A DNA stretch of 64,000 nt from Dehalococcoidia bacterium (GTDB lineage: Bacteria > Chloroflexota > Dehalococcoidia > Bin125): positions 2,496,001 through 2,560,000 of the forward strand of contig OY820591.1 of assembly GCA_963555985.3 (NCBI GenBank), given 5' to 3'. Shown here piece after piece: positions 5,250 through 36,872 of this stretch. The notes under the pieces are model-generated. The model saw nothing but the letters and a program-made list of their open reading frames with translations, was not told the origin of the DNA and made no database searches. Each line of letters starts with the position of its first letter. Position 1 is the stretch's first letter. The position numbers and the translations under genes were made by a program.

Positions 5250-5286
5250 CTACCCTCCTCTCCCCATGATCGCTCTCCCCCTTGAG

Positions 5287-5427
5287 GAGACCGGTGCAAA
5301 AGTCCCATTTCCGTCATTCCAGGCTTGACCTGGAATCTCGTTCGGAGTTCGGTCTATCTGGTCGGGCGAGATTCCAGCTTTCGCTGGAATGACGAGAGCA
5401 GCGGGAATGCCAATTTGCAAAGCCCTC
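5287..5427. mobile_element. MITE-like element: IS-like TIRs enclosing an inverted pair of CGTC-type REP hairpins
   Basis: GAGACCGGTGCAAAA ... ATTTGCAAAGCCCTC ends; internal CGTCATTCCAGGCTTGACCTGGAATC and GATTCCAGCTTTCGCTGGAATGACG. Confidence 0.7.
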
Positions 5428-5538
5428 CGTAGGCGGGGACAAGGGGGGTCCCCGCTACGCCTGAGCAGATGAGATCGCACGGTCACGGTAAGCACCCCGG
5501 ACATACGCCGCAGCGACGGCACGCAATACCCTCTCTTC

Positions 5539-6417
5539 ATGACCACCCTCAACGACTATCCCGCCTCCCAGATCTACTTCTCCCAGCGACTGCGGCTGCA
5601 CTACGTGGATTGGGGCAATCCCAGCGCTCCGCCGCTGATCCTGGTTCACGGCGGGCGCGATCACTGCCGCTCCTGGGATTGGGTCGCGCTGGCCCTGCGC
5701 GACCGCTACCACGTGATCGCGCCCGACCTGCGCGGTCACGGCGACTCGCAGTGGGTCAACGGCTCCGGCTACGCCATGATCGATTACGTCTACGACCTGG
5801 CCCAACTGGTGCGGCAGAAGCATCTCGCGCCCGTGACCTTGCTTGGCCACTCGCTGGGCGGGCGCATCTGCATCGAATACGCCGGCATCTACCCCGATCG
5901 CGTCAGCCGCTTGATCGCGATCGAGGGCCTGGGGCCTTCGCGTTCGCAAACGGACGAACACTCGAACACCCCGGCGCATCGGCGGATGGCGGACTGGATC
6001 GGCTCGATTCACCGCTTCGCCGGACGCCTGCCCCGCCGCTATCCGACCCTCGAGGATGCGGTCGATCGAATGCGCGAAGCCAACCCCCGGCTCTCGCCGG
6101 AACAGGCGCTGCATCTCACCACCCACGCCGTCAACCAGAACGAGGACGGCACCTACATCTGGAAGTTCGACAACTACGCCCGCTCGCACTCGCCCTATCC
6201 CTTCAACGAGGACGACGCCGAGGAGATCTGGCAGCGGGTGCGGATGCCGACCCTGCTGATCAGCGGCTTGGAATCCGCCGGAGACCCGAACAAAGACGAA
6301 CGAACCAAGTCCTTCCCCCACGCGCAGCGGGTCGGAGTCGCCAACGCCGGCCACTGGGTGCATCACGACCAGCTCGATCTGTTCCTCGATCACGTCGAGC
6401 ACTTCCTGATCCAATAG
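5539..6417 (+). CDS. Alpha/beta-fold hydrolase
   Basis: LVHGG oxyanion motif, DLRGHGDS, GHSLGG nucleophile elbow, AGHWVHHD catalytic His. Confidence 0.93.
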   Translation: MTTLNDYPASQIYFSQRLRLHYVDWGNPSAPPLILVHGGRDHCRSWDWVALALRDRYHVIAPDLRGHGDSQWVNGSGYAMIDYVYDLAQLVRQKHLAPVTLLGHSLGGRICIEYAGIYPDRVSRLIAIEGLGPSRSQTDEHSNTPAHRRMADWIGSIHRFAGRLPRRYPTLEDAVDRMREANPRLSPEQALHLTTHAVNQNEDGTYIWKFDNYARSHSPYPFNEDDAEEIWQRVRMPTLLISGLESAGDPNKDERTKSFPHAQRVGVANAGHWVHHDQLDLFLDHVEHFLIQ

Positions 6418-6705
6418 GAGACTCGTGCGCAATCCTCAATCATCTCCCCCTGACGAGACCGTTGCAAAATCCCCATATCCGTCATTCCCGCGCAGGCGGG
6501 AATCTCGAACCTCTCAAGTCTGAAGCTCTTCCATATCTGGTCGTACCACCGACCTCGCATCGCACGCTCCGCTTCTCCGAGCCCCCAATGCACCGAGATG
6601 GACTTTCCCAAAGCCCTCCGAACGCAGGAATCCATACAACGTGTCGAGTGGGACGTGGATTCCCGCCTGCGCGGGAATGACGGAAATGGGAGTTGCAAAG
6701 GTCTC
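6418..6705. mobile_element. Nested MITE-like element with a 6-bp target-site duplication (CAATAG)
   Basis: Left ends GAGACTCGTGCGCAAT (6418) and GAGACCGTTGCAAAAT (6455); right ends TTTCCCAAAGCCCTC (to 6618) and GTTGCAAAGGTCTC (to 6705); CAATAG at 6412-6417 and 6706-6711; REP hairpins CGTCATTCCCGCGCAGGCGGGAATC inside. Confidence 0.8.
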
Positions 6706-6743
6706 CAATAGCGCTACCGTCTACGCGGAGAGGAATCAGCCGG

Positions 6744-8192
6744 ATGCGGATCAGCCGATCACTCGCGCTCGCCTTGCTGGGCCTGCTGGCGCTCGCCTGC
6801 GCCGCCGGCGGTTACGTGCTCGCGCATGTGACTCAGGGAGAGAACGAAGTGCGGGTGGTCGTGCGACCGCACGAGGACGGCCGGATCGAGGTCGCGCTGC
6901 AACAGCGAACCGAGGGGAACTGGGGCGAACCGCTGAAACCAGAGCGGCGCTTCCTCTCGCCGGAGCGGATCGAACAGCAAGCCGGTCGCTGGCTGCAAAG
7001 TTCGCCGCTCTTGCTCGAAGCGCAGCCCGAACCGGAGCCGCTGCGGATCGGCTTCATCGGCAGCTACACGGGCACGCCCGCGCCCTCGGGCCCCGATCGG
7101 CAGACCGGAGCGGAGTTGGCCGTCGCCCATCTCAACGCGGCGGGCGGGGTCAACGGGCGCCCGGTCGAGTTGGTGGTCGGCGATACCGGCTCCGAGCTCG
7201 AAGTAGTGCTCGCGGAAGCGCGCCGCTTGGTCGAGGAGGAAGGCGTCCACGCGATCGTCGGCCCCGATCGCAGCTCGTTCACGCTGGCGGTCGTGGAGGC
7301 GGTGACCAAGCCGGCCGGAATTCCGACGATCTCTCCTTCGGCTACTTCGCCCCTGCTGACCACCGCCGACGACGACGGCTACCTCTTCCGCAGCATCACC
7401 TCCGACGCTGCGCAAGGGCCGGCGCTGGCGGCGCTGGCGCGGGACGAGGGCTACACGAACGTCGGCGTGATCTTCTTCGACGACGCCTATGGACGAGGGT
7501 TGGCCGAGTCGTTTGAGGCCGCCTGGAGCGATGCGGGCGGGAAGCTGGCGACGGCGCCAATCAACGGCGAGTCGGACTCCTATCTGAGCGAACTGCGAAT
7601 GCTGGCCGAGTCCGGCGCGGAGGTCTTGGTCGTGATCACCTTCGTCAGCCAGGCCGAAATCTTTCTCCGTGAAGCGCTTGAGCAGGAATTGTTCGATCGC
7701 TTCCTCTTCGTGGATGCGACCAAGCGCCAGTATCTGCTTGATGTGATCGGCGCCGAGCACCTGAGCGGGATGAAGGGCACCTCTCACGCGCCCGCGCCTG
7801 AGACCGAGTCGCTGCGGCTCTATCTGGAGGCCTACCGAGCGATGTTCGGAGAGCCGTCGGGCAGCGACTTCGTACCGACGACCTATGACGCGGTGATTGC
7901 CATCGGGCTGGCGGCGGCGAAGGCCGGTTCGACCGACGGAGCCGCGATCCGCGACGCGCTGCCGCAAGTGGCCGGTCCGGGCGGACAAGAGGTGCTGCCC
8001 GGCGCTGCGGGAGTCGCGCAAGCGCTGGCGATCATCGCCCAGGGCGGGGAAGTCGATTACCAGGGCGTTGCGACCAAGCTGGACTGGGACGCGGCGGGAG
8101 ATGTGCCCGCCGGTCAGATTGGCATCTGGCAGTTCGCAGCGGGCGGGATCGAGGAGCTGCGAGTGGTGCCGTTCGATCTGCGGGAGCAGTAA
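6744..8192 (+). CDS. LivJ/LivK-like ABC substrate-binding protein with an extra N-terminal domain
   Basis: LRIGFIGSYTG, NAAGGVNGRPVELVVGDT, ISPSATSP and YLFRS motifs; signal-like hydrophobic N-terminus from ATG 6744 with GGAGAGGA upstream. Confidence 0.9.
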   Translation: MRISRSLALALLGLLALACAAGGYVLAHVTQGENEVRVVVRPHEDGRIEVALQQRTEGNWGEPLKPERRFLSPERIEQQAGRWLQSSPLLLEAQPEPEPLRIGFIGSYTGTPAPSGPDRQTGAELAVAHLNAAGGVNGRPVELVVGDTGSELEVVLAEARRLVEEEGVHAIVGPDRSSFTLAVVEAVTKPAGIPTISPSATSPLLTTADDDGYLFRSITSDAAQGPALAALARDEGYTNVGVIFFDDAYGRGLAESFEAAWSDAGGKLATAPINGESDSYLSELRMLAESGAEVLVVITFVSQAEIFLREALEQELFDRFLFVDATKRQYLLDVIGAEHLSGMKGTSHAPAPETESLRLYLEAYRAMFGEPSGSDFVPTTYDAVIAIGLAAAKAGSTDGAAIRDALPQVAGPGGQEVLPGAAGVAQALAIIAQGGEVDYQGVATKLDWDAAGDVPAGQIGIWQFAAGGIEELRVVPFDLREQ

Positions 8193-8236
8193 GGCCGTTG
8201 GCGGGGCGCAAACGTTCAGCGCCTAGACTGCGCGCC

Positions 8237-9373
8237 ATGAGCGCCCTAGCGCGACCGAGACCGAAATTCAGCTGGTTCGTCCCGATCGACGGCGACGGCG
8301 ATCGGATCGGCTCCCTGCGCGCGCAGCGTCCGCCCAGCTTCGACTATCTGCGCGATGTCGTCCTCAACGCGGAGCAGCTGGGCTATCACTCGCTGCTGAT
8401 CCCCACCCGTTTCAGCAACGGCTCGTTCGATCAGGCCGCGCCGCTCGCGGAGACCTGGACGGCGGCGACGGCGCTGGCGGCGGTCAGTTCGCGCATTCGC
8501 TTGCTAATCGCCGTGCGGCCGGGCTTCGCCTCGGCGGGACTCTTCGCGCAGCAGGCCGCGACCCTGCACGAGCTCTCGGGCGGGCGAATCGATATCAATA
8601 TCGTCCCCGGGGGCATCCAGGGCGACAACGAGCGGATCGGCGCAGCCGTCTCACACAACGACCGCTACGCGCAGGCGAACGAGTTCATTGAGGCCTGTTC
8701 GCGGCTCTGGGCCTCGGGCGGGCCGCTGGACTTCGCCGGCGAGGCCGTGCATCTGCGCGGAGCGCTCTGCGCGCCGCAGCCGTCGCCGCCGCCGGAGTGG
8801 TACCTGGGCGGCGCCTCTGACTCGGCGCTGCGCTTGGCGGCTGAGCGGGCGGACGTGCTGCTCTGCTGGATTCAGCCGTTCGAGGCGATGTCGGCGCTGC
8901 TGGATCGCGCGCGTGAGGCAGCGGCGCGAGCGGGGCGCAACCCACGCTTCGGGCTGCGTACGCATCTGGTCGTGCGCGAGACCGAAGCCGCGGCTTGGGC
9001 GGAGGCGGAAGCGCTGCTCTCGGAGGCGCATCCCCAGGTGATGGCGCAGCGCGCGGCGGCGGTACGTTCGACCGCGATGGTCGGGGCGGCGGCGCAGGCG
9101 CGGCGAGTGGAGGACGATCGCCTCAGCGAGCGCTTGTGGAACGGCATCTCGCGCGTGCGGGTGAATCTGGGCACGGCGATCGTGGGCACACCCGAGCAGG
9201 CGGCAGCGGAGTTGCGGCGCTACTGGGAGCTGGGATTTGATGAGTTCATCCTCTCGGGCTATCCGCATTTGGAAGAGGCGGAGCGGATTGCTCGGGAGGT
9301 GATTCCACTTGTTGCGCCGGACCCCCCTCTGTCCCTTCGGGACATCTCCCCCCGCAATGCGGGGGGAGAGTAG
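8237..9373 (+). CDS. LLM-class flavin-dependent monooxygenase, SsuD/alkanesulfonate monooxygenase-like
   Basis: WFVPIDGD, LIAVRPG, YLGGAS, AIVGTPE and FILSGYPHLEEA motifs typical of SsuD. Confidence 0.88.
   Translation: MSALARPRPKFSWFVPIDGDGDRIGSLRAQRPPSFDYLRDVVLNAEQLGYHSLLIPTRFSNGSFDQAAPLAETWTAATALAAVSSRIRLLIAVRPGFASAGLFAQQAATLHELSGGRIDINIVPGGIQGDNERIGAAVSHNDRYAQANEFIEACSRLWASGGPLDFAGEAVHLRGALCAPQPSPPPEWYLGGASDSALRLAAERADVLLCWIQPFEAMSALLDRAREAAARAGRNPRFGLRTHLVVRETEAAAWAEAEALLSEAHPQVMAQRAAAVRSTAMVGAAAQARRVEDDRLSERLWNGISRVRVNLGTAIVGTPEQAAAELRRYWELGFDEFILSGYPHLEEAERIAREVIPLVAPDPPLSLRDISPRNAGGE
9321..9370. repeat. REP-like double hairpin, family B (CCCCCTCTGTCC..GGACATCTCCCCC..GGGGGAGAG), overlapping the 3' end of the LLM gene
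   Basis: The same motif recurs at 10696, 11482, 13776, 18959 and 34390. Confidence 0.85.
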
Positions 9374-9416
9374 GGACCCGAGCGGCGCGGCGGTCTGCTG
9401 AAACCGGAGGTCTGAA

Positions 9417-10613
9417 ATGGGTTGGCCAATCGACCGTCCGACGGGGCTGACGCACCACGATCCGGCCCGCTCCTGCAAGGGCTACACGCTGATGTGCGGT
9501 CTGGGCGGACAGGATGCGGTGCTGCTCGATATGCAGGGACGGGTGGTTCAGCGCTGGCACGTGCCCGACCGCCGGCTGTTCAACGTCGAGTTGCTGCCGA
9601 GCGGGAACCTGCTGGCGCTGCTCTCGCCGCTCAATCCGCCGCCGCCGCGCACGATCGGCGAGACTACCCGCTTCAATCTCGATCCGGGCGAGCCGCCGGA
9701 CACGTTCAACTTCTTGGGCGGTCACGGCGACGGTCTGCACGAGCTCGACTGGGATGGGAACAGCGTCTGGGCAGTGGAGAATCCGGCGCTGCACCACGAC
9801 TTCGCGCGGATGGCCAACGGCCACACGATGACGCTGGAGTGGGTCGAGATTCCGGACGAGGTCTCGGAGCGGATCCCGGGCGGCGGACACTTGCCCAATC
9901 AGCCGATGCCGCCGCGCATGATCGGCGACGATTTCGTCGAACTCGACGAGCACGGGGCCGAGCTCAGCCGCATCCACCTCTGGGAGGCGCTTGAGCCCGA
10001 GTTGACCCCGATCTGTCCGCTCGAAAATCGCTGGGAGTGGACGCACACCAACAGCGTGGACGTGATGGAGGACGGCGGGATCATCTTCTCGGCGCGCAAT
10101 GTGAGCACGATCGGGATCGTTGATCCGCCCAGCGACGACCAACCGCCAACTCTGCGTTGGAGCTGCGGCCCGCCCGAACTGGCGCATCAGCATCACGCCT
10201 CGGCGCTGGCGAACGGGCGCATCCTGGTCTACGACAACGGTCAGCACCGCTTGCAAGACCTCTGCTACTCGCGGGTGCTGGAGATTGATCCGTCGGACGA
10301 CAGCGTGGCGCAGGTCTTTCAGGGGACGCCGCGAGAGCAGTTCTTCTCGGCGCACATCTCCGGGGTCTGCCGCTTGGAGAATGGCAACACGCTGGTCACG
10401 GAGGGCGCGGCGGGGCGGATCTTCGAGGTGGACGGGCAGGGGCAGGTGGTCTGGGAGTGGGTTAGTCCGTTTCAGGTGCAGCAGCGGGGTGATACGTGCA
10501 ACTGGGTCTTTCGGGCCTGGCGGTACGGGGCGGACTTTCCCGGTCTGGCGGGGCGGGAGTTGGATCACCGTGCGCAGGCGGGGTTCAATCGCTTGTATGG
10601 GTTGGGGGAGTGA
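9417..10613 (+). CDS. Aryl-sulfate sulfotransferase (ASST)-like beta-propeller protein
   Basis: HHDF, WTHTNSV, HQHHA, YDNG, SRVLEIDP, RLENGNTLVTEG..GRIFEV motifs. Confidence 0.85.
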   Translation: MGWPIDRPTGLTHHDPARSCKGYTLMCGLGGQDAVLLDMQGRVVQRWHVPDRRLFNVELLPSGNLLALLSPLNPPPPRTIGETTRFNLDPGEPPDTFNFLGGHGDGLHELDWDGNSVWAVENPALHHDFARMANGHTMTLEWVEIPDEVSERIPGGGHLPNQPMPPRMIGDDFVELDEHGAELSRIHLWEALEPELTPICPLENRWEWTHTNSVDVMEDGGIIFSARNVSTIGIVDPPSDDQPPTLRWSCGPPELAHQHHASALANGRILVYDNGQHRLQDLCYSRVLEIDPSDDSVAQVFQGTPREQFFSAHISGVCRLENGNTLVTEGAAGRIFEVDGQGQVVWEWVSPFQVQQRGDTCNWVFRAWRYGADFPGLAGRELDHRAQAGFNRLYGLGE

Positions 10614-10695
10614 TTGGATTGGGGATGAGCACATATCCAGTGCCGTCATTGTCCGCTCCGCCGCAGGTATGACGGAAGTGGAGACGCGGGTCTCA

Positions 10696-10738
10696 CCCCC
10701 TCTGCCCCTTCGGGGCATCTCCCCCTCAAGGGGGAGAT
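10696..10738. repeat. Family B REP-like double hairpin between convergent genes
   Basis: CCCCCTCTGCCCCTTCGGGGCATCTCCCCCTCAAGGGGGAGAT. Confidence 0.85.
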
Positions 10739-10766
10739 TAGTTCTCTGTATGGGTCATCCGAGGGA

Positions 10767-11357
10767 TCAGCCGGAGCGGGGGACTTTGAGGCGGCGGGTG
10801 GCGATCAGGAGGTCGTGGGTTTGGCCGTCGGCGTCGATTACGTAGTCCCAGAGGACGGCTTCGCGCTGGAAACCGAGGCGGCGGAAGACGGATTGGGCGG
10901 CGGCCTGGTCGAGCACCATGCGGGCGGTGAGGAGTTGCAGTTCGAGCAGTTGGGCGATGGCGTAGATCTCTTCGGCAAGGACTCGGCCGAGTCCGCGGCC
11001 GCGGGCGGTTGGGGAGAGCAGCAGGCGGATTTCGCCGAGGTGGCGGGTCCAGTCGGCGGAGGAGTAGTTGAGGTCGCCCTCGCCGAGCAGTTCGTCGCCG
11101 TCGAAGGCGAGCACGGTGTAGGTGCGCCCGTCGGCGATTTCGCGCATCCAGTCGGCGACGGAGGATTCTTTGGTGATGTCGCGGCGGAGGAAGAGGAGGT
11201 CGTCGGCGGGCAGTGAGCGGGCGAAGGCGAGGATCGTGTCTTCATCGCCCGGGCCCATCAGGCGGAGGCTAATCTTGTGTCCGTCGCGGAGGGAGGCGGC
11301 GCGGGGGTAGCGGACGGCGATGTGTTGCTGAGCTTCAGCGGGGGAGGTCTGGGCCAT
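10767..11357 (-). CDS. GNAT family N-acetyltransferase
   Basis: ARGRGLGRVL acetyl-CoA motif and AAQSVFRRLGF; ATG at 11357. Confidence 0.88.
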   Translation of the reverse strand: MAQTSPAEAQQHIAVRYPRAASLRDGHKISLRLMGPGDEDTILAFARSLPADDLLFLRRDITKESSVADWMREIADGRTYTVLAFDGDELLGEGDLNYSSADWTRHLGEIRLLLSPTARGRGLGRVLAEEIYAIAQLLELQLLTARMVLDQAAAQSVFRRLGFQREAVLWDYVIDADGQTHDLLIATRRLKVPRSG

Positions 11358-11481
11358 GTCGGGGTTGGAGCCTCTCGGATGGGCGTGATCGTTGTGCGAT
11401 GGGGACAGGATACCGATGCGCTCCGCAGGGGCTAGCAACTGGATAACCCTTGCCGGGGGGTCAGTGTTTGCATCTGGGCGG

Positions 11482-11582
11482 ACCCCCCTCTGTCACTACG
11501 TGACATCTCCCCCCGCAGTGCGGGGGGAGAGATAAAGGGAGCTTTCGGATCAGCTCTCTCCCTGCTTACGCAGGGAGAGAGC
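11482..11582. repeat. Family B REP-like hairpin cluster
   Basis: CCCCCCTCTGTCACTACGTGACATCTCCCCCCGCAGTGCGGGGGGAGA plus GCTCTCTCCCTGCTTACGCAGGGAGAGAGC. Confidence 0.85.
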
Positions 11583-11601
11583 GGGGTCGTGCGAGGGAGC
11601 G

Positions 11602-13620: not shown

Positions 13621-13775
13621 GGGTCTCGCTCCTTCGCTGTACGCGCGCGCAGCGCGTGCATTGTGCTTGTGTGCGGGAGTCTAACGGGATGCTCCTACGT
13701 CATGTAGACGCGGTAGCGGCCGGGTTGCGGGGCCGGATCGAGTTTGCTGTGCTTGGGCTGTTGAGCAGCGGTCGG

Positions 13776-13825
13776 ACCCCCCTCTGCCGCTTCGCGGCGT
13801 CTCCCCCCGCACTGCGGGGGGAGAG
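13776..13825. repeat. Family B REP-like double hairpin
   Basis: CCCCCCTCTGCCGCTTCGCGGCGTCTCCCCCCGCACTGCGGGGGGAGAG. Confidence 0.85.
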
Positions 13826-13880
13826 TGGGAGTGGGATTGGTCGGACCTTATCCGTCGCTGCACGAGGTCTCGGCGCGGTG

Positions 13881-14306
13881 TTAGGGGAGCGGCAACTCGA
13901 CTCCGACCTGTTGGCAGAGGCGGATGATGGTGTCGCGCAGATCGGCCTCGCGCCCGCCGACCTCCCAGGGCCACTCAATCCACCGTCCGGGGTACTCGCC
14001 GGTGCGTTTGTCGATCAGCGCATAGGTCTCGAGTCCGTGCTCCGCCCGCAGGCGGCGCGCGGTCGCGCCGGAGTCGACGATGTCGTCAATGGCGATGTCT
14101 GCGGCCTGCGGTTCGTCGACAACGTTCATGCGTCCCGAACCGGCGAGCATTGCCGCGACGAACAATCCCCCTCGGGGGACGGGGTAGGCCGCGATCCGGT
14201 TGTCGCCGTGGGACTCGCACACGCGGCGCTCAAGCTGTCGCGCCAACTCATAAGCCTCTGTCCACGTCACCTTGATGACGCGGTGGTCAGGGCTTGGAGG
14301 GGGCAA
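13881..14306 (-). CDS. Small type I phosphoribosyltransferase-like protein
   Basis: VPRGGL loop, IAIDDIVDSGATA PRPP-binding motif, WIEWPWE; TTG start 1 bp after the upstream LLM stop. Confidence 0.75.
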   Translation of the reverse strand: MPPPSPDHRVIKVTWTEAYELARQLERRVCESHGDNRIAAYPVPRGGLFVAAMLAGSGRMNVVDEPQAADIAIDDIVDSGATARRLRAEHGLETYALIDKRTGEYPGRWIEWPWEVGGREADLRDTIIRLCQQVGVELPLP

Positions 14307-29194: not shown

Positions 29195-29333
29195 CTGTAC
29201 TGTCTCTCCCGCGCCGGAAGCTCAAGCCAACAAGGTTGCCTGCACTGGTATATCACTCAGATTTCGACAGAAACACCAACGGCGATACAGGCTGGGAAGC
29301 TGAGGGTGGACTTGCGATCCTCTCTCCCCGCAA

Positions 29334-29539
29334 GAGACCGATGCATAATCCATGTTCCGTCATTCCCGCGTTCGGAGAGCTTTGCGAAAATTCTCTTGTG
29401 GGCGCATTGGAGTTTGGAGAAGGGGATCGCGCGATGTGAGGTTGGCGGTACGACCAGATTGGGAGTGGTTTCATACTTGGTTGCTTCGAGATTCCCGCCT
29501 GCGCGGGAATGACGGATTTTGGGATTACGCGCAGGTCTC
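29334..29539. mobile_element. MITE-like element (TIRs + REP + conserved core) inserted in a family B hairpin
   Basis: GAGACCGATGCATAATCC ... GGATTACGCGCAGGTCTC; flanks TCTCTCCCCGCAA | CTCAAGGGGGA; homologous in reverse orientation to 6465-6630. Confidence 0.78.
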
Positions 29540-29617
29540 CTCAAGGGGGAAAGGAGGGAGTAGAGCCCGGCCTGGGCGGGAATGAGGGATCAGGAGGAGA
29601 GGCTTTTCGGCGATTTG

Positions 29618-30376
29618 TTAGAGGTGGAGCTTCATGCCGTCGTGGACGGCGGCGACTTCGCCTTTGAAGATCTGCGACGCAGCGGCCGCCGCCGCATCCC
29701 GATCGGCGTCGAACCAGAAGTGGGTGAGCAGCAAGCGCTGGACTCCGGCTTCGCGGGCCAACTCGGCCGCTTGCACGGCGGTCAGATGACCGCGCACGGG
29801 GCCGGCTTCGGGTTCGTCGAGCGTCGCTTCTGCGAGCAGGGTGTCGGAGCCGCGCGCGAGTTCGCAGACGGCCGGGGAGGGAGCGGTGTCGCCGGTGTAG
29901 GTGAGGCTGGTGGAACCGTCGATCCGCAGGGCCCAGCCGGGGATGTAGTGCACGCCGACGGCGCAGCGCGCTTGCAGACCGTCGCCCAGCGCGATCGGGG
30001 CGGCGCTGTCGTACTCGCGCACCTGGAAGACGGTGTGGAGGAAATCGGGCGGGAAACAGACTGCGGCCAGGACTTGGCGCAGCGTCTCGCTGCCGTCCGG
30101 AGGCAGGTAGAGCGCGATCCGCTGCTCGGGGAGACCGTTCATATCGCGGGTAAGACGGAAGCGCAGGGGCAAGAGATCGATGAAATGATCGGCATGCATA
30201 TGGGAGATGATGATCGCGTCCAGATCGAACTGGGGGCGTTCGGCCAAGAGCGCCGAAGCGATTCCATGCCCGCAATCGAGCAGGACGCTGCGCCCGCGAT
30301 CTTCGACGAGATAGCCCGAACTCGCGCCGCCGCCGGGCGGGCAGGCGGCACCCGAGCCCAATACCGTGAGCTGCAT
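29618..30376 (-). CDS. MBL-fold metallo-hydrolase (RNase Z/YhfI-like)
   Basis: LTVLGSG, LLDCGHG, SHMHADH, YTGDT, GHLT and LLLTHF motifs. Confidence 0.92.
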   Translation of the reverse strand: MQLTVLGSGAACPPGGGASSGYLVEDRGRSVLLDCGHGIASALLAERPQFDLDAIIISHMHADHFIDLLPLRFRLTRDMNGLPEQRIALYLPPDGSETLRQVLAAVCFPPDFLHTVFQVREYDSAAPIALGDGLQARCAVGVHYIPGWALRIDGSTSLTYTGDTAPSPAVCELARGSDTLLAEATLDEPEAGPVRGHLTAVQAAELAREAGVQRLLLTHFWFDADRDAAAAAASQIFKGEVAAVHDGMKLHL

Positions 30377-30524
30377 CCGCTACTCCCTGATCGCCCGACC
30401 GTCCCGCATGATCCGGGGGCTGCGCGCGGTATGGTGCGCGTGCGCCTTCGCTCGCCCGATTGGGCTGATCCTACGCACGTAGTTTCGGCGCGTTCTATCA
30501 ACCACGCGCCAGAAGCGAGCGCCG

Positions 30525-30728
30525 ATGCCCGCATTGCCGCCCTCAAACCGTTCCCAGCCCCCCAGAGGACTGTGCGATCGCTGTTCCTTCGCGCGCTTGA
30601 TCGGCAATCGCAGAGGCAGCGTCTTTCTGCGCTGCGGACGACATGACGAAGACGCGAGTTACGCGAAGTATCCGCGCCTGCCGGTATTCGAGTGTCGCGG
30701 ATTCAGTCCGAATGACGAGCGCGAGTGA
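30525..30728 (+). CDS. Small four-cysteine hypothetical protein
   Basis: GLCDRC..RGSVFLRC..KYPRLPVFEC pattern, which I recognise from a widespread family of uncharacterised small proteins. Confidence 0.65.
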   Translation: MPALPPSNRSQPPRGLCDRCSFARLIGNRRGSVFLRCGRHDEDASYAKYPRLPVFECRGFSPNDERE

Positions 30729-30797
30729 GCCGTTCGGCGCGCCTATCCTCTGTGTGCGCAGCGGCCGGCGCGGCTGCGCTCTTGGAGGACGGGATCG

Positions 30798-31910
30798 ATG
30801 GGCACACTCTCGCCGCGCTGGCTGCGAGCGGTCTCCGAGGCGTGTCTGCGCATTCTGGTGGTTGCCGCTGCGCTGATTCTGCTCGGCCTGGCAATGGATC
30901 GCCTGCGCGTGATCGTGCTGCCGCTGCTGGCGGCGATCATCCTGGCGACGGCGTTGATGCCGCTCAAGCACCGGCTGGTGCGGCGCGGGCTGCCCAACAC
31001 GCAGGCGACGGTGGTCGTGGTCGGCAGCGCGATTGCGGTGTTGGGCGCGATCGGTTACGGCACCGTCGAAGGCTTGGCGGCGGATTTCGATGAGCTCGAA
31101 GTCGATATTCAGGCCGGCTTCACGCAGGCGGTGGAATCGGTCGGCGGTTGGTTCGGACTGTCGGAAGAGCAGACGGACGAGGCGATCGACGACATTCTGG
31201 AGGGCATTCGCGGCAACGCGGGGACGGTCGCGGGCGGGCTGTTCTCGGGCGTACTGGTCGCGTTTGAGATCGTCGCGGGCGCGATCCTCCTGGTCGTGTT
31301 GATGTTCCTGATCGTGAAGGACGCGGAGCGGATGCAATGGGAGATCGCGCGCCGGCTGGGGGGCGAACACCGGCACGACTTCCTGCTGCTGACGACGGGA
31401 CTCTGGGAGACCTTGGGGCGCTATTTCCGGGGCGTCGCGATCGTCGCCTTCATGGATGCGTTCTTTATCGGGATTGGCTTGGTGATCATCGGGATTCCGT
31501 TCGCGCTGCCGCTGGCGGTGTTGACGTTCTTCGGGGCGTTCATTCCCGTGATTGGGGCGGTGCTGGCGGGGCTGGCGGCGTTTCTGATCGCGCTGGCGAC
31601 CGAGGGCGTGACGGCGGCGCTGATCGTGGGCGGGCTGGTGCTGGCGGTGCAGCAGATCGAGGGCAACGTGCTCGCGCCCTACATCGTGGGGCGGCAGGTG
31701 TCGCTGCATCCGGCGGTAATCCTGCTGGCGGTGGCGACGGGGGGGACGCTGTGGGGGATTCTGGGCGCGTTCGTGGCGGTGCCGGTGACGGTGATCGCGG
31801 TGGCGATCGTCGACTTCTACACGCGCAGCGGCCAGTACGCGCTGCGCAAAACCAGCGTGACGCAGCGCGAGACCGAGGAGGGCGAAGAGTCCGGTGAGGC
31901 GATCGGGTGA
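30798..31910 (+). CDS. AI-2E family transporter
   Basis: FIPVIGA, VQQIEGNVLAP, LHPAVILLAV and GILGAFVAVP motifs. Confidence 0.92.
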   Translation: MGTLSPRWLRAVSEACLRILVVAAALILLGLAMDRLRVIVLPLLAAIILATALMPLKHRLVRRGLPNTQATVVVVGSAIAVLGAIGYGTVEGLAADFDELEVDIQAGFTQAVESVGGWFGLSEEQTDEAIDDILEGIRGNAGTVAGGLFSGVLVAFEIVAGAILLVVLMFLIVKDAERMQWEIARRLGGEHRHDFLLLTTGLWETLGRYFRGVAIVAFMDAFFIGIGLVIIGIPFALPLAVLTFFGAFIPVIGAVLAGLAAFLIALATEGVTAALIVGGLVLAVQQIEGNVLAPYIVGRQVSLHPAVILLAVATGGTLWGILGAFVAVPVTVIAVAIVDFYTRSGQYALRKTSVTQRETEEGEESGEAIG

Positions 31911-31950
31911 GTCCCAGTTCGCTTCAACGGGGCCGACGCGCCGCGTCCGC

Positions 31951-32973
31951 TCAGGCCAGTAGGAATAGCAAGGCGCTCGCGCCTGCATAGCCGCCGACCA
32001 GCGTCGCTCCTTCGGGAGTCCAGAGTCGATTGTCCGCCGATCTGTTTCTCGTCATTACTCCGACGATCACCACCATCGTCATCAGCACCGCAATCAGGCC
32101 CGAGAGGATATGCACGGTCGACACCGCCGACCAGACCGCGCCGTCGGTGAAGGCGAGATCATCGAAGAACAGGACGATGCCCATGTTGAATACGTTGCTG
32201 CCCAGCACGTTGGTGATCGCCAGGTCGGGCGCATTGAGCCGGAGGGCGGCAAAGGAGGTGCCGATCTCCGGCAGCGACGTGCTGATCGCGAGGAACTGGG
32301 TGCCGACGAAGCTCGCTTCCCAGTGCATCGTTTCGGCGATCTGCTCGCCGGTGTTGGAGAGCCAGACAGCCGCCCCTACGACGACGGCAGCGGAGACGGC
32401 GTAGATCAGCAAGGCTCTGGACAACGACTGTTCACTCCGGCCAGGCTCGGGCGACCGCTCGTCCGCGCCGACGGCCTCCGCTTCTTGAGTCTGCCGATCG
32501 TGCCGATAGATCAGGAACATGGCCGCGACAAAGCCGAGGATCAGCACGATCGTCAGCGGGCTGATGTACCACTCCGAGGTGACTCCGGTTTCGCTGTGGA
32601 TGAAGATCGCTAGCGTCGCGAGCGCGATCAGACCTGCGCCGAGCGCGCCGACCATCACCGATGTGCGCGTGACCGCATTCAGGACCGGACCGTTCTGCCA
32701 GTAGAGGTCGGCCAGGCCGATGATCATGAGATTGAACAGGTTGCTGCCGAAGGCGTCGCCGATTGCCAGGTCGGGCGCGTCGAGCCAGGCGATCGAGCTG
32801 ATCCCGGTGGCCAACTCCGGCAGCGATGTGGCCGTGGCGAGCATGACCACGCCGATGAAGGAGCGTCCCAGCCCGGTCCGCTCCGCCACGGTGTCGGCGG
32901 AACTGGCGAGGAAGTGCGCCGCCAGCAGGATGAACACGGCCGACGCGGCGAACTGGAGCCAGAGCAGTGCCAT
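31951..32973 (-). CDS. Sodium:calcium antiporter (CaCA/YrbG family)
   Basis: Two alpha repeats: ATSLPEL...GSNLFN and STSLPEI...GSNVFN. Confidence 0.93.
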   Translation of the reverse strand: MALLWLQFAASAVFILLAAHFLASSADTVAERTGLGRSFIGVVMLATATSLPELATGISSIAWLDAPDLAIGDAFGSNLFNLMIIGLADLYWQNGPVLNAVTRTSVMVGALGAGLIALATLAIFIHSETGVTSEWYISPLTIVLILGFVAAMFLIYRHDRQTQEAEAVGADERSPEPGRSEQSLSRALLIYAVSAAVVVGAAVWLSNTGEQIAETMHWEASFVGTQFLAISTSLPEIGTSFAALRLNAPDLAITNVLGSNVFNMGIVLFFDDLAFTDGAVWSAVSTVHILSGLIAVLMTMVVIVGVMTRNRSADNRLWTPEGATLVGGYAGASALLFLLA

Positions 32974-32987
32974 CGGCGTCGGTCCTG

Positions 32988-33083
32988 CCCTCACCCCAAC
33001 CCTCTCCCAGAGGGAGAGGGGGCTAACCCAACGTCCGTCTCGTCTGGCGCCCTCTCTCCCTGGGAGAGGGCGAGGGTGAGGGG
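32988..33083. repeat. Inverted doublet of CCCTCTCCC..GGGAGAGGG REP-like hairpins
   Basis: CCCTCACCCCAACCCTCTCCCAGAGGGAGAGGG ... CCCTCTCTCCCTGGGAGAGGGCGAGGGTGAGGG. Confidence 0.85.
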
Positions 33084-33108
33084 CCCGCGCCGGACGCCTC
33101 TTTCGCCG

Positions 33109-34032
33109 CTAGTCCCAGCTTGGCTTGGATGGGGCTGAGGCGCCGCGCATGAGTTCGCGGTCGTGGGGGGCGTTGGCTCGGGCGCCGCGGAAATCGCGGA
33201 AGGGGCCGTCGCGCCACTCGAGGGCGGCCTTGAGACCGTCGCGCTGGACGCGCATCCCCCACTCGCCCGCTTCGGGGCGGTGCTTGGACATGGCTTCGAC
33301 GTCGGTACCGGAGATCATGGCGGTTTTGTAGCCCTGGATTTCGTAGGCGCGGTTGACCGAGCGCTTGGAGTACATCAACAGGTGGTTGTCGATGTGGCCC
33401 ATGCGCTGGGCGAATTCCATGGTGAATTCGTCCAGATCGTCGGCCTGGAGCGCATAGTTGGCCCAGCCCCAGCGGTACATGTCGGCGCCGGAGTGGGGGT
33501 CGCCGAGGTAGGCGAACTCGCGGGCTTTGGCCTGGGGCAGATGCCAGGGCGCCCACATCGCGTCCATCGTGCCCATCGCGCGGACGGGCGGGTAGCCGAC
33601 CTGGCAGTCTTCGGCGATGATGCGGAGGTCACAGGCGGAGGCGAGTTCGGTCGCTCCGGCGAGGCAGTAGCCATGCACCTGGGCGATGACCGGCTTGGCC
33701 AGCTCCCAGATGATGAAGTTGCCCATCACGGCGTGGCGCGACCAGTCGTAGTGCTGGGGGTGGGTGGTGCCGGTGTCGGGTAGTCCCGTCCACTGGTTGG
33801 TATGTGGATGGTCGGGGTCGGGCGAGGGGGCGAGGTCGTAGCCGGCGGAGAAGGCGCGTCCGGCACCCTTGATGATGACGACGCCGATGCCCGAGTCGGC
33901 CTCGGCTTGTTTGAGCGCGTGGAACATCTCGCCGCGCAGCTCATTGGAGAGCGCGTTGAGCTTTTCGGGGCGGTTCAGGGTCACGGTGGCGACGCGGCCG
34001 TCGGTGTCGTAGAGGATGTTGTCGTAGGTCAT
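33109..34032 (-). CDS. Crotonase/enoyl-CoA hydratase family protein
   Basis: TLNRPEKLNAL, AFSAGYDL and KPVIAQVHGYCLAGATEL motifs. Confidence 0.92.
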   Translation of the reverse strand: MTYDNILYDTDGRVATVTLNRPEKLNALSNELRGEMFHALKQAEADSGIGVVIIKGAGRAFSAGYDLAPSPDPDHPHTNQWTGLPDTGTTHPQHYDWSRHAVMGNFIIWELAKPVIAQVHGYCLAGATELASACDLRIIAEDCQVGYPPVRAMGTMDAMWAPWHLPQAKAREFAYLGDPHSGADMYRWGWANYALQADDLDEFTMEFAQRMGHIDNHLLMYSKRSVNRAYEIQGYKTAMISGTDVEAMSKHRPEAGEWGMRVQRDGLKAALEWRDGPFRDFRGARANAPHDRELMRGASAPSKPSWD

Positions 34033-34150
34033 GGGGCGGTCCTTCGAGGCGGTTGGGAGTCGGAATCGAGTATAGGCGCGGGTTTGGAGGCGAAAATCGG
34101 GTGCGATTGGTCAGAAATGCGCAGTTTTGCGGGGAATTCGGTGGAATTCC

Positions 34151-34200
34151 GTCCAGATTTGTCCAGATCTGTCCAGATTTGTCCGGATGAGTCCGGGTTG
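34151..34200. repeat. Five tandem 10-bp repeats (GTCCAGATTT consensus)
   Basis: GTCCAGATTT GTCCAGATCT GTCCAGATTT GTCCGGATGA GTCCGGGTTG. Confidence 0.88.
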
Positions 34201-34389
34201 TTCCACGAAACATCAGTGTGAGTCTGTGCTTGTCCTGAGAAGTCCATGATGTGTTCGGCGGTCATGGCGGGTTCCGTTGGTTGTCGGTTTGGTGTTTGGC
34301 GTGGTCAATCATATATGGACGGGCGTTCTGCGGTGGAGGCAGGGTTGGATGGGTGTTTCTGGGGTCACAGTCTGGTTGGAGGTGGGCGG

Positions 34390-34467
34390 ACCCCCTCTCT
34401 GTCCCCCCGCCTTCGCGGGGGCAGGCTCTACGGGACCTCTCCCCTCGCAGTGCGGGGGGAGAGGGGG
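34390..34467. repeat. Family B REP-like element with a small hairpin nested in its first loop
   Basis: CTCTGTCC[CCCCGCCTTCGCGGGGGCAGGCT]CTACGGGACCTCTCCCC..GGGGGAGAGG. Confidence 0.75.
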
Positions 34468-34521
34468 AACCGCCTTTGGCGAGATCCCCGCAATGCGGAG
34501 AGCTTGTAGCCTGCGGGCACT

Positions 34522-35325
34522 ATGCCTGATCTGACTACCGATACCGCCGTCTTTGAACTGTCTGACCACATTGCGACCGTGACGCTCAACCGTCCGGAGG
34601 CGATGAATGCGCTGGATCCGGATTTGATCGCCTCCCTAGCCGATATCTGGGTTGAGATCCGCGACAACTCCGATATCTGGGTCGGGATCGTCACCGGCGC
34701 CGGCGACCGCGCCTTCTGCGCCGGGGCCGACCTGAAGAAGACGATTCCGACGCGGCCGGGGGCTGAGAACGTCAACTGGCCGGTGTTTCAGCCGTCGTTG
34801 CGGCACACGATTGACGGCGGGATGCAGATTTGGAAGCCGATGATCGCGGCGGTGAACGGGTATTGTCTGGCGGCGGGACTGACGCTGCTGTCGGCGTGCG
34901 ACTTGCGGATTGCGGCGGAACATGCGCAGTTTGGTTTGCCGGAGGTGATTCGGGGGATTGTGCCGACGCTTGGGGCGACGCAGCGGCTGACACGTCAACT
35001 GCCGTGGTCGGTTGCGATGGAGTTGCTCTTGATGGGCGAGCATATTGATGCGCAGCGGGCGCTGTCGGTGGGGTTGGTCAACCGCGTCGTTCCGGCAGCC
35101 GAAGTGATGCCGACGGCTCGGGCCTGGGCGGAGAAGCTGACGGCGGGCGCACCGTTGACGCAGCGGGCGATCAAGGAGGCGGCGGTGCGTGGGTTGTCCT
35201 TGCCGATTGATGAGGGGATCCGGTTGGAGGAGTTGTTGTCGGCGCACGTTCGGAAGACGGATGATTTCAAGGAGGGTCCGCGGGCGTTTGCGGAGAAGCG
35301 GCCTCCGGTCTATCGGGGGAACTAG
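34522..35325 (+). CDS. Crotonase/enoyl-CoA hydratase family protein
   Basis: TLNRPEAMNAL, AFCAGADL, KPMIAAVNGYC, FGLPEV and EGPRAFAEKR motifs. Confidence 0.93.
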   Translation: MPDLTTDTAVFELSDHIATVTLNRPEAMNALDPDLIASLADIWVEIRDNSDIWVGIVTGAGDRAFCAGADLKKTIPTRPGAENVNWPVFQPSLRHTIDGGMQIWKPMIAAVNGYCLAAGLTLLSACDLRIAAEHAQFGLPEVIRGIVPTLGATQRLTRQLPWSVAMELLLMGEHIDAQRALSVGLVNRVVPAAEVMPTARAWAEKLTAGAPLTQRAIKEAAVRGLSLPIDEGIRLEELLSAHVRKTDDFKEGPRAFAEKRPPVYRGN

Positions 35326-35352
35326 GCTCACTACGTCGCTGCCAAACAGCGC

Positions 35353-35660
35353 CATCATACGCGCGCTTGCCGCGGGTATCTCGATGTGGGCAGCATGGCA
35401 GTCGCGTCCGGGTTGGGCGCTTTGGGACCGAGAGTCCTCAGAATGAGACGACGGTGCAGCACTCAGCGAGATTCCCGCGACGGAGCGCGGGAATGACGGT
35501 GTTTGATTTACGCGAAGGTCTCTTGTAGGCACGCTGGAGTCTAGAGGAGCGGATCGCGCGATGTGAGGTCGGTGGTACGACCAGATTGGGAGTGGTTTCA
35601 CACTTGGTTGCTTCGAGATTCCCGCCTGCGCGGGAATGACGAGGCAGTAGTGGGAATGAC
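35353..35660. repeat. Mosaic of CGTC-type REP hairpins, one TIR and the conserved core
   Basis: Hairpins at 35353-35383, 35467-35499 and 35615-35641; TIR ATTTACGCGAAGGTCTC ending 35522; 35552-35641 matches 29425-29514 at 87/90. Confidence 0.82.
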
Positions 35661-35734
35661 GGAAGCGGGCTGTGAGTAGGCCCTAGTCTGTGAGAGACCG
35701 TGTGGGACGGGTTCACGAAGCAGGAGCGAAACAG

Positions 35735-36682
35735 ATGACGATGCGAGTGAGTTTTGGCGCGCAGATTCCGGGGAATTCGACGGACTTTTCGCTGATGCGG
35801 GATGTGGCTCAGACGATGGATGCGACGCGCTGGTCTTCGGCTTGGACGTATGACCACTTTGTGCCTCCGCTGGTGTTTATGGATGAGACTCAGGACTCGT
35901 TGGAGGGCTGGATGACGCTGGCGGCGCTTGGGGAGGCGACGGAGACGCTGATGTTGGGCACGCTGGTGTCGGGGGTGACGTACCGGAATCCGGGGTTGCT
36001 GGCGAAGATGACGGCGACGCTCGATCACAACACGAAGGGCCGTGCGATCCTGGGCTTGGGCGCGGCCTGGCATGAGCGCGAGCACGCGGCCTACGGCTGG
36101 GACTTTCCCGAACTGCGTGAGCGGTCGGATCGACTGGAGGAGGCGACGGCGCTGATCCGGGCGCTGTTCCGCTCAGAGGAGTCGGTGCATTTCGAGGGTC
36201 AGTACTACCGGCTCGATCATGCGCCGTTTGCGCCTCGAGTGCATCCGGATCATGCGGGCGGCGCGATCGAGATCATGATCGGCGGGAACGGAGCGAAGCG
36301 GACGTTGCGCACGCTGGCTCGGTATGGGGATATCTGCAATGTGCGGGGGACGCCGGAGGAAGTGGCCAAGATGATCGAGGTGATTCACGCTCACTGCCGC
36401 GACGCGGGGCGGGATCCGTCGGAGATCACGCTGACGACGGTGATGCGTCCGGCGCTGGTTGTGGAGCAGCACAAGATCGAGCGGTTGCGGCAGGTACACG
36501 GCGCGGAGATGACGCCCGAACAGCAGGAGCGGCTGCCGATCGGTCCGGCGGAGCATCTGATCGGTCTGTTTGAGGAGTATGCGGCGGTGGGGATCAGCGG
36601 GTTTGTGTTTGAGTCGATTCCGAACAATCCGCGTTTGTATGAGCAGTTCGATGCCGAGGTGCTGAGCGCGTTTGACGAGTGA
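35735..36682 (+). CDS. LLM-class, probably F420-dependent, oxidoreductase
   Basis: AWTYDHF, LEGW.TLAAL, GVTYRNPGLLAKM, GLGAAWHEREH.AYG and IMIGGNG.KRTL motifs. Confidence 0.9.
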   Translation: MTMRVSFGAQIPGNSTDFSLMRDVAQTMDATRWSSAWTYDHFVPPLVFMDETQDSLEGWMTLAALGEATETLMLGTLVSGVTYRNPGLLAKMTATLDHNTKGRAILGLGAAWHEREHAAYGWDFPELRERSDRLEEATALIRALFRSEESVHFEGQYYRLDHAPFAPRVHPDHAGGAIEIMIGGNGAKRTLRTLARYGDICNVRGTPEEVAKMIEVIHAHCRDAGRDPSEITLTTVMRPALVVEQHKIERLRQVHGAEMTPEQQERLPIGPAEHLIGLFEEYAAVGISGFVFESIPNNPRLYEQFDAEVLSAFDE

Positions 36683-36696
36683 GGCCGGGGGTCTTC

Positions 36697-36872
36697 CTGC
36701 GCGGGAATCCATCCCGGCGATCTGCGGCGTGGATTCCCGCCCCCTGTTCAGGCCAGGGGCAGGCTGCGCGGGAATGACGGATATGGGGATTTTGCACAGG
36801 CCTCCCTGCGCGGGAATGACGGATATGGGGATTTTGCACAGGCCTCCGTGCGCGGGAATGACGGATATGGGG
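36697..36872. repeat. REP mosaic with a 42-bp tandem unit (REP arm + TIR) x2.6
   Basis: TGCGCGGGAATGACGGATATGGGG-ATTTTGCACAGGCCTCC(C/G) starting at 36765, 36807 and 36849 (last copy partial). Confidence 0.9.

Follow-up and report, generated by a model that had tools for sequence, protein, structure and literature searches.

Gene-less inverted-repeat elements with IS1106/IS1182-type ends and their probable insertion into hairpin loops in a Dehalococcoidia genome

A stretch of 64,000 nucleotides from a Dehalococcoidia bacterium of the Chloroflexota (contig OY820591.1 of assembly GCA_963555985.3, positions 2,496,001 to 2,560,000; hereafter the window) contains repeated intergenic elements that are gene-less miniature inverted-repeat transposable elements (MITEs) of 133, 141, and ~165 bp with terminal inverted repeats (TIRs). 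It appears probable, if well short of certain, that these non-autonomous elements, with ends that resemble those of IS1106 and IS1182, were moved in trans by a DUF772-DDE transposase into the loops of hairpins. The assembly comprises 3.33 Mb with 65% G+C and is 96.4% complete with 7.5% contamination; its main contig is designated C1. An earlier description of the window, made from its letters alone (the original prediction), had picked out a real system and was right about most of it.

The elements are identified by an end motif, GAGRCCNNTGCAAAA, which occurs at both element ends in inverted orientation. At no more than two mismatches, eight matches are present in the window (5287+, 5413-5427-, 6455+, 6691-6705-, 29334+, 29375+, 36790-36804-, and 36832-36846-), compared with a mean of 1.66 and a maximum of 5 in shuffled sequences, none of 100 shuffles reaching eight. 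Together with four ends at 6418, 6618, 29539, and 35522, which were read directly as variants with three mismatches, these matches show that the repeated end motif predicted at five intergenic loci is real; all five lie between long open reading frames (ORFs), as judged from ORF lists rather than gene calls. The ends at 29539 and 35522 belong to a sub-type, GAGACC..CGC[AG]TAA, with 32 copies on C1. In the whole assembly, the motif occurs in 55 exact copies, 139 copies at up to one mismatch, and 281 at up to two, and C1 alone has 260 ends (49 exact). The junctions quoted in the original prediction were all correct: the string GGTCTC/CTCAAGGGGGA was found at 5287 (reverse strand) and 29539, the arms termed 'family B' at 6455 and 29334, those termed 'family A' at 6618, 29375, 36804, and 36846, and CCGTCATTCCCGCG, by reading, just inside the ends.

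In an alignment of 139 ends, the motif opens a ~50-nt module that consists of GAGRCC-N-TTGCAAAA, ~10 nt, and then CGTCATTCC-CGC-N4-GCG-GGAATC, a hairpin (8-bp stem, 4-nt loop) of which variants exist. Each element end is thus a 15-nt TIR, GAG-RCC-N-TTGCAAAA, with a hairpin of the Neisseria Transformation Sequence (NTS) type ~10 nt inside it, mostly at both ends and in class B at one end only. Inverted adjacent ends less than 300 bp apart form 43 pairs on C1, which fall into size classes of 132-134 bp (n = 12), 140-142 bp (n = 12), and 163-168 bp (n = 9). Mean identity within classes is 93%, 80%, and 68%, the first being the mean pairwise identity among the 12 copies of the 141-bp class. The elements are therefore MITE-like in being short and without coding capacity, in their discrete size classes and TIRs, and in the target-site duplication seen in 11 of the 43, while an autonomous element with the same TIRs was not found in the same genome. 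A search of Rfam with window 5200-6800 gave no match at E values up to 1, and a plasmid collection yielded no annotated element, only NTS-type matches in Neisseria, Sphingobium, Photobacterium, and Azospirillum records.

With regard to the sites of insertion, the context CC[CTA]GC-N4-G (a hairpin 5′ arm and a 4-nt loop) stands directly before 113 of the 260 C1 ends and before 35 of the 49 exact ones, as against 334 of all 129,496 GAG sites (0.26%), and a further 16 C1 ends come after a C[CT]CCC arm. The predicted position of ends at hairpin loops is thus borne out by enrichment on C1. Perfect direct repeats abut GAG...CTC in 11 of the 43 complete elements. Nine of them are 6 bp long (C-N4-G, the loop and its closing pair), one is 7 bp long (CTCCACG, with a 5-nt loop), and one of 5 bp lies in non-hairpin DNA; shuffled partners gave 1.63, 0.02, and 0.03 duplications of 6, 7, and 5 bp, respectively. 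The loop is identical between the two flanks in 11 of 43 elements, compared with 2.0 on average and at most 9 in 10,000 shuffles. When the element and one repeat are removed, the rebuilt empty site has perfect 7/7 arms in seven of the 11 cases, and in seven of 11 there are 1 to 40 intact copies of the rebuilt 20-mer at other places on C1. The targets belong to at least three arm families (ATTCCCGC, GTCCCCGC, and CTCCCCC), and one 141-bp element type was found in three different hairpin families.

Related elements of 175-201 bp, which have the same TIR and a different inner hairpin, occur in a complete Dehalococcoidia chromosome (G023), where 42 ends were counted compared with 2 in a reversed-pattern control. 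They are located inside hairpins of the form ATACCCGCG-loop-CGCGGGTAT, where three duplications are perfect (9, 10, and 9 bp); one further pair has a repeat with one mismatch, and in two pairs (L173 and L192) the loop is inverted. In both genomes, the DNA outside the repeat ends with ..CCCG and resumes with CGGG.., and therefore the joint is ~7 nt into the stem on each strand. The 13 perfect cases lead us to infer that the repeat length is whatever lies between the two joints, i.e., that it follows the geometry of the hairpin.

A mechanism may be proposed on this basis. A DUF772-DDE transposase supplied in trans would move the MITEs, and its target, as the anatomy shows, is a short GC-rich hairpin or cruciform of no fixed sequence. 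Both strands would be joined ~7 nt into the stem, just behind ..CCCG, so that the loop and closing pairs between the two joints would be duplicated. Since each inserted element would bring NTS-type hairpins of its own (mostly two, one in class B), it would supply fresh targets and give rise to nesting. Homologous recombination among copies would follow later, and it fits the mismatched flanks, solo ends, and tandem 42-bp units that are observed.

The kinship of the ends to known transposons is seen most directly in Neisseria. The exact 15-mer GAGACCTTTGCAAAA, which fits the consensus, is present in this genome and occurs 10 times in an N. gonorrhoeae chromosome and 0 times in the control. Five of the gonococcal ends are followed by an ORF of 149 amino acids (aa) with DUF772 (3.5e-12), which represents IS1106-like remnants; its best NCBIfam match is the IS5 family (1.8e-15), followed by IS1182, both below cut-offs because the gene is internally deleted. 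In a Neisseriaceae genome (G024), the first 12 nt are common to a resident 1.2-kb PF01609 element and a local MITE composed of TIR plus NTS. Finally, a metagenome-assembled genome (MAG) of Magnetococcales contains a 2,105-bp element (L086) with the TIR GAGTCCCCTG[AC]AAAA and a 604-aa transposase with PF13751, PF05598, and PF01609, whose best NCBIfam match is IS1182 (1.5e-53; 182 bits, under the cut-off of 270). The repeats of this element are ~4-5 bp, those of the MITEs being 6-10 bp here and in G023 and 4 bp in Magnetococcales. By sequence, then, the ends are of the IS1106 (IS5) or IS1182 (DUF772-DDE) kind, in agreement with the predicted IS-type ends: the exact 15-mer terminates IS1106-like remnants, and a related TIR is present on an IS1182-like element.

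A matching transposase, on the other hand, was not encountered, and several observations weigh against the proposed mechanism. PF01609, PF05598, and PF13751 gave 0 matches in this 96.4%-complete assembly, and no autonomous element with the exact TIRs and NTS was detected among 30 PF01609 loci scanned in five MITE-bearing genomes, where one IS1182-like element has a related TIR. The copies have diverged, to 93%, 80%, and 68% identity by class, and activity is probably past. Across ~200 kb of second-haplotype contigs, outside four long break regions, no whole MITE was seen to be gained or lost, and no empty-site contig was found among the matches listed from four public runs, whose short Logan contigs break at repeats and are unable to show absence. 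A hairpin-defined repeat of variable length is represented by 10 cases here and three in G023, only four of which differ from 6 bp. In addition, a related MITE of the Magnetococcales MAG makes 4-bp repeats (AAAG, ATTA, CGTT, and AATT) in non-hairpin DNA, and hairpin homing is therefore not general to the superfamily. Lastly, 25 of the 43 elements have no flanking repeat, often with arms of two different families on their two sides.

The last point is also the first that speaks for a quite improbable alternative, namely that no transposition took place and that the mosaic arose from homologous or site-specific recombination at hairpins, as was proposed for the intergenic mosaic elements of Neisseria (NIMEs). 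The inverted loop in some flanks (L173 and L192 in G023) agrees with it, as do five copies of one junction with a common outside flank, which points to copies of a larger segment, and PMC1797815 depicts the NIME arrays of Neisseria as dynamic and driven by recombination. Recombination at hairpins would have to give, however, eleven precise duplications at the same termini, far above the number in shuffles, and place a 141-bp element in three different hairpin families; it also sits poorly with rebuilt empty sites that are perfect hairpins found intact elsewhere and with the clean 4-bp repeats that related MITEs of another phylum have in ordinary DNA.

The haplotypes present in the assembly bear on the same question. 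Contigs C2-C11 are second-haplotype versions of parts of C1 with 95-99% identity, ~200 kb in all (C3 corresponds to window 46159-57207), and the contamination figure of 7.5% is explained by them. Several haplotype breaks are gene replacements of 1-3 kb. The sole repeat difference between haplotypes is a 41-bp unit that is missing in a 97.6%-identical contig, where a hybrid unit occurs instead, as unequal crossing-over would give; such a product is a further point in favor of recombination without transposition. The comparison of filled and empty sites suggested in the original prediction thus revealed no whole-MITE polymorphism in the ~200 kb of second-haplotype contigs or in the public-run contigs listed, and a 16-mer of the motif is absent from 20 of 20 relatives, so that no orthologous comparison is available.

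On the reading in which the MITEs were moved by a DUF772-DDE transposase, the elements look like orphans of past activity, because there is no transposase here, relatives lack them, the classes have diverged, and no MITE was gained or lost between haplotypes; the missing transposase is the weakest link of that reading. The original prediction had assumed that hairpins are targeted by structure by a transposase encoded elsewhere. Its first half is supported by the loops of at least three unrelated arm families and by the duplications, while for the second the genome offers no matching transposase. The autonomous insertion sequence with identical ends that it called for is likewise absent from this genome, and 30 PF01609 loci elsewhere do not have the same TIR. 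Among the 16 end pairs in this genome that are 400-3000 bp apart, four were rejected as autonomous partners since they are MITEs holding an IS30-like insertion, and seven further intervals contain ordinary genes, their ORFs having been judged by eye and not by Pfam. A 1,340-bp end pair in G023 was rejected as well, being a MITE that holds an IS110-family insertion.

These insertions are of interest in their own right. The IS30-like element is 1,032 bp long and encodes a 338-aa ORF that matches HTH_38 (3.5e-15) and, weakly, rve (3.4e-4). Ten copies are found on C1, at 129565(-), 260956(-), 1543431(+), 1955909(-), 2308130(+), 2797641(+), 3015341(+), 3036554(-), 3117167(+), and 3136765(+), with none in the window. 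Nine of the 10 are at the same place in the 3′ arm of NTS-type hairpins (..GCGGGAA-IS-GGGAAT..) with an apparent 5-bp repeat, and contig C8 has an uninterrupted hairpin at the site of copy 2797641. The IS110-family transposase gene of G023 (398 aa, by eye) is at positions 889-2085 (-) of C1 3225800-3229300 of that genome, within a MITE of the same TIR family, and represents another insertion sequence that homes into these repeats. A 23-nt mini-hairpin (CCTGCCCCTGGNCTGAACAGGGG, element strand) is a second kind of occupant of the NTS hairpin loop and is found at window 36731-36763 and at C1 963317, 999119, and 3135002.

The sequence inside the ends that was called REP (repetitive extragenic palindrome) in the original prediction is the NTS, which contains dRS3. 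By the criterion of the Ssn paper itself (up to one mismatch; PMC11893778), the NTS CGTCATTCCCGCGMAVGCGGGAATCYRG is matched 75 times on C1, once exactly, and 4 times in the window. In each of two gonococcal records, at least 40 places match the NTS segment of window 29333-29540 at 88.6%. On C1, 112 of the 274 CGTCATTCC heads are located behind the transposon TIR, or 158 by a wider TIR pattern. Records from Magnetococcales, Nitrospirota, Desulfobacterota, Chloroflexota, and Neisseriaceae show one and the same spacing between TIR and hairpin, and therefore the hairpin is integral to the MITE superfamily and not captured cargo. The idea that REP sequence is mobilized as cargo should accordingly be replaced by that of a built-in part, whose distance from the TIR is constant in MITEs from several phyla.

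The presence of a target-like hairpin within the ends had also raised the possibility of end-encoded target guidance. Among 45 ends with one hairpin outside and another inside, the outside loop equals the inside loop 6 times (6.06 expected) and its reverse complement 2 times (1.8 expected), and no excess of arm identity was observed in the same ends. Mutual information between TIR positions and the loop gave P values of 0.74, 0.09, and 0.03, which are uncorrected and come from copies that are not independent. Guide-directed targeting of an IS200/IS605-like or bridge-RNA-like type thus finds no support from co-variation, IS110-family genes not having been searched for in this genome; with loops matching as often as expected and arms without co-variation, the guidance idea was not retained.

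NTS hairpins are substrates of SsnA single-strand nucleases. SsnA, a small GIY-YIG enzyme, cuts the NTS in its single-stranded form, 3 nt upstream of the hairpin head (PMC11893778), and the NTS-ssnA-NTS unit is likened to an insertion sequence in the same paper (PMC11893778, Nat Commun 2025;16:2388), whose main text, supplements aside, does not contain the words MITE, TIR, and IS1106. Two small GIY-YIG (ssnA-like) genes are present on C1, at 84725-85015 and 2090339-2090626 (PF01541, 6.9e-16 and 1.9e-14, respectively). Their proteins are 50% identical to a Neisseriaceae homologue, and NCBIfam gave them no family name, only a weak unrelated match. Each gene is flanked by its own inverted hairpin variant, that of the first gene being the variant of the 141-bp MITE class. 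Homologues of ssnA were found in five of five other MITE-bearing genomes searched (E values from 7.8e-43 to 2.3e-5), most of them flanked by inverted hairpin pairs, and the ssnA units at six loci inspected have no TIR. The hairpins thus belong to the type of site bound and cut by SsnA-type nucleases, and such enzymes might possibly have some role in MITE mobility.

It could further be supposed that SsnA-type nucleases themselves mobilize the elements by cutting extruded or single-stranded hairpins, with NTS-ssnA-NTS as the autonomous form and the MITEs as gene-less derivatives. We consider this unlikely. Two GIY-YIG genes with hairpin variants of their own, one of them shared with the 141-bp class, and homologues with mostly inverted hairpin pairs in all five other MITE-bearing genomes do argue for it, and if the hairpin of each strand were cut at an equivalent position, the dependence of repeat length on geometry would be accounted for. 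We know of no recorded transposition by a GIY-YIG enzyme of the SsnA kind, however, and the TIR is that of elements with a DDE transposase and is lacking from the ssnA units at the six loci. Targets also include families other than the NTS, GTCCCCGC-N4-GCGGGGAT and CTCCCCC-TTGA-GGGGGAG. Although the Ssn paper compares NTS-ssnA-NTS to an insertion sequence, the cut that it gives, 3 nt upstream of the NTS, would fall ~23 nt inside the MITE and neither at the GAG...CTC termini nor in the loop (PMC11893778).

Gene cassettes in several copies are another conceivable, and very unlikely, source of mobility. One comprises a 283-aa protein encoded at window 4398-5249 (+), with an N-terminal helix-turn-helix (HTH; sub-threshold Pfam matches only) and Pro/Glu-rich repeats, whose gene has at least six copies at 86-90% nucleotide identity and weaker ones. 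Five of six copies are preceded by a half-MITE made of NTS and class B core, in four with a recognizable TIR, and one copy (C1 999119-1000521) lies between inverted ends. In the other cassette, a 120-aa acidic protein is accompanied by a 472-aa protein homologous to the large subunit of phage terminase (phrog_2, 5.8e-23; matches to Terminase_3 and Terminase_6N exceed the cut-off), whose nuclease has an RNase H fold. Its five full copies (C1 664751-666518, 107383-108801, 1688614-1690032, 1952779-1954197, and 2029180-2030598) are 87-89% identical and are accompanied by five fragments, and the copy that was read adjoins metabolic genes without phage genes. Among same-family genomes, four of 12 have 1-2 copies, and the 120-aa gene alone has ~15 more copies at 72-77%. 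Mobility from either source is difficult to reconcile with cassettes that are not as a rule bounded by a TIR pair and whose copies are 87-90% identical, unlike the MITE classes; moreover, the HTH protein has no catalytic domain by Pfam, and the terminase homologue is single-copy in MITE-free relatives. Class B may have arisen by deletion from a longer element, or the 283-aa gene may have been copied along with its upstream MITE.

The inverted doublets of a REP-like hairpin also have the layout of REPINs, the REP doublets mobilized by the transposase RAYT. This origin is close to refuted and can be given hardly any weight: PF01797 (Y1_Tnp) has 0 matches here, in a search whose control was positive in six of 14 genomes, and, to our knowledge, movement of the RAYT/IS200 type involves neither flanking duplications nor DDE-type TIRs.

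Related elements occur in other genomes as well. The closest MITE-bearing matches to this genome are Chloroflexota MAGs. The Magnetococcales MAG accounts for 18 of the 59 loci of cross-genome matches and has 40 ends, all in MITE-sized pairs. In the Neisseriaceae genome G024 (L068, L073, L078, and L155-L159), an IS5-family element and TIR-plus-NTS MITEs abut the palindrome TTTCAGGC(A/T)GCCTGAAA, and a direct repeat of 7 bp, GGCAGCC, is present at one copy of the IS; elements of this group may commonly home into palindromes. A broader scheme can be put forward tentatively, in which NTS/dRS3 hairpins spread across phyla as subterminal hairpins of MITEs, joining was directed by cruciforms at a fixed distance from the stem base in some lineages, the duplication being as long as the stretch between the two joints, each insertion created new targets, the arrays became self-seeding and NIME-like, and Ssn nucleases acted as host control or helper; we regard it as possible, with the balance against it.

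The elements of the window comprise one 141-bp copy (5287-5427), two ~165-bp copies (6455-6618 and 29375-29539), and several solo ends. At the first locus, a target hairpin is split, and positions 5273-5286 are its left half, with the 5′ arm CTCTCCCCC, the TTGA loop, and the closing G; intact CTCCCCC-TTGA-GGGGGAG hairpins occur downstream of other copies of the 283-aa HTH gene that ends at 5249. The class C MITE at 5287-5427 (+) has TIRs at 5287-5301 and 5413-5427 and two inverted NTS-like hairpins of the variant ATTCCAGG/ATTCCAGC, which also flanks the ssnA-like gene at C1 84725-85015. Its right flank (5428-5461) consists of C, GTAG, and GCGGGGAC..., which is a 3′ half from another hairpin family. 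With the flanks mismatched (TTGA and GTAG) and no flanking repeat, the 5427/5428 junction is read as recombinant.

The second locus begins directly after the stop codon of the ORF at 5539-6417 with a solo left-end module (6418-6454, +) that has a degenerate TIR, GAGACTCGTGCGCAA, followed by a CTCCCCC arm and TGA-C. It is followed by a 164-bp class B MITE at 6455-6618 (+), which has a TIR and an NTS hairpin (CGTCATTCCCGCGCAGGCGGGAATC) on the left and, on the right, a TIR with three mismatches (6604-6618) and no hairpin. This MITE sits in the hairpin loop of the following element fragment (CGAAC GCAGGAAT), the right part of a 133-class element (6619-6705, -) with loop and 3′ arm, spacer, NTS hairpin, and right TIR at 6691-6705, the left part being absent. 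A Logan contig with 0 differences spans the 6618/6619 junction.

At the third locus, a solo left-end module (29334-29374, +) is composed of the TIR sub-type GAGACCGATGCATAA, the NTS 5′ arm CATTCCCGC, the loop GTTC, and G; this sub-type, GAG[AG]C[CT]GATGCATAA, has 10 copies on C1. In the NTS loop of that module lies a 165-bp class B MITE at 29375-29539 (-), inverted relative to the 6455 copy, with flanks GTTC and TCAA and no duplication. Positions 29540-29556 (C, TCAA, and then GGGGGAAAGGAGGGAG) form the 3′ half of a CTCCCCC-type hairpin, and the junction string is identical to that at 5287. The nested mosaics described in the original prediction are therefore partly real, with nested insertions at 6455-6618 and 29375-29539, while much of the mosaic is due to recombination after insertion.

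The remaining loci contain partial elements. A right-end module at 35470-35522 (-) has an NTS-like hairpin with a 6-nt loop and a TIR sub-type (reverse complement GAGACCTTCGCGTAA), and a class B core without TIRs at 35547-35641 (-), with an NTS hairpin at 35615-35641, is common to 6455-6618 and 29375-29539. A degenerate remnant at 36684-36762 (-) has two NTS-type hairpins, one of which holds the 23-nt mini-hairpin in its loop (CCTGCCCCTGGCCTGAACAGGGG, - strand). Next to it are two tandem 42-bp solo-end units at 36763-36846 (36763-36804 and 36805-36846, -), each with TIR, NTS 5′ arm, and loop; they are identical except at the first junction, and because no nested right ends come after them they represent a tandem duplication rather than nesting. 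A third, partial unit at 36847-36875 (-) has the NTS 3′ arm and head and no TIR.

Among known systems, IS1397 and ISKpn1 of the IS3 family, with duplications of 3-4 bp, similarly home into REP-type hairpins, the palindromic units of enterobacterial bacterial interspersed mosaic elements (BIMEs), and differ from the elements described here in being of another family, with different ends, autonomous, and without a target hairpin of their own. They are cited as experimentally supported cases of REP homing in PMC1525189. ISNm1106 (IS1106) has the identical terminal 15 nt, GAGACCTTTGCAAAA, and is listed there as an IS5-family element that prefers REP-bearing intergenic spaces (Tobes and Pareja, PMC1525189). 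The gonococcal IS1106-like ends that were read, in contrast, are not followed by an NTS hairpin, the TIR-plus-NTS junction occurring once there and 10 times in another Neisseriaceae genome; a transposase is lacking here, and insertion is precisely in hairpin loops.

The stem-loops that IS1272, a member of the IS1182 family, uses as targets are unrelated in sequence (Wan et al. 2017, PMC5678879), and variable repeats and palindrome targeting have been reported for the family (PMC5678879). The likeness to the present elements concerns both the target, a stem-loop of any sequence, and the TIR pattern GAG-N5/6-TG-N-AAAA on the IS1182-like element L086. IS1272 deletes the stem-loop without duplication, unlike the elements here, which duplicate the loop and closing pairs; its cruciform model has loop or stem-loop duplication as alternative outcomes (PMC5678879). 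The elements here are, in further contrast to IS1272, gene-less, carry target-like hairpins, and reside in a genome without an IS1182-type transposase. By analogy, their anatomy fits an enzyme of the IS1272/IS1182 type.

The NTS/Ssn system is resembled in the NTS hairpin and the small GIY-YIG genes with inverted hairpins, with the difference that hairpins here stand behind a transposon TIR and are also insertion targets. As in NIMEs, ATTCCC-N8-GGGAAT hairpins (182 in the assembly) occur among modules of 40-150 bp in intergenic arrays that differ from strain to strain; unlike in NIMEs, many hairpins here are split by insertions, and many modules are TIR-bounded elements with flanking repeats. 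The NIME-like mosaics of this genome run counter to a 2007 statement that confines NIMEs to Neisseria (PMC1797815).

What is already known, then, are MITE ends of the IS1106/IS1182 type, structure-dependent targeting of hairpins, and the NTS/Ssn hairpins, and what is new is that the elements carry their own type of target, that the geometry of the hairpin sets the repeat length, and that mosaics of the NIME kind exist in a genome other than Neisseria. Ends of the IS1106/IS1182 type, REP-like hairpins as attractors of insertion sequences, and NTS hairpins cut by Ssn are parts of one structure here, which offers a concrete, testable vehicle for the so far unexplained expansion of NTS-type repeats. 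The duplications of 6, 7, 9, and 10 bp are natural examples of the loop-duplicating outcome that the IS1272 paper put forward only as a model, and they track hairpin geometry. If a matching transposase is found, these elements would provide a simple system for a DDE enzyme that reads DNA structure over sequence.

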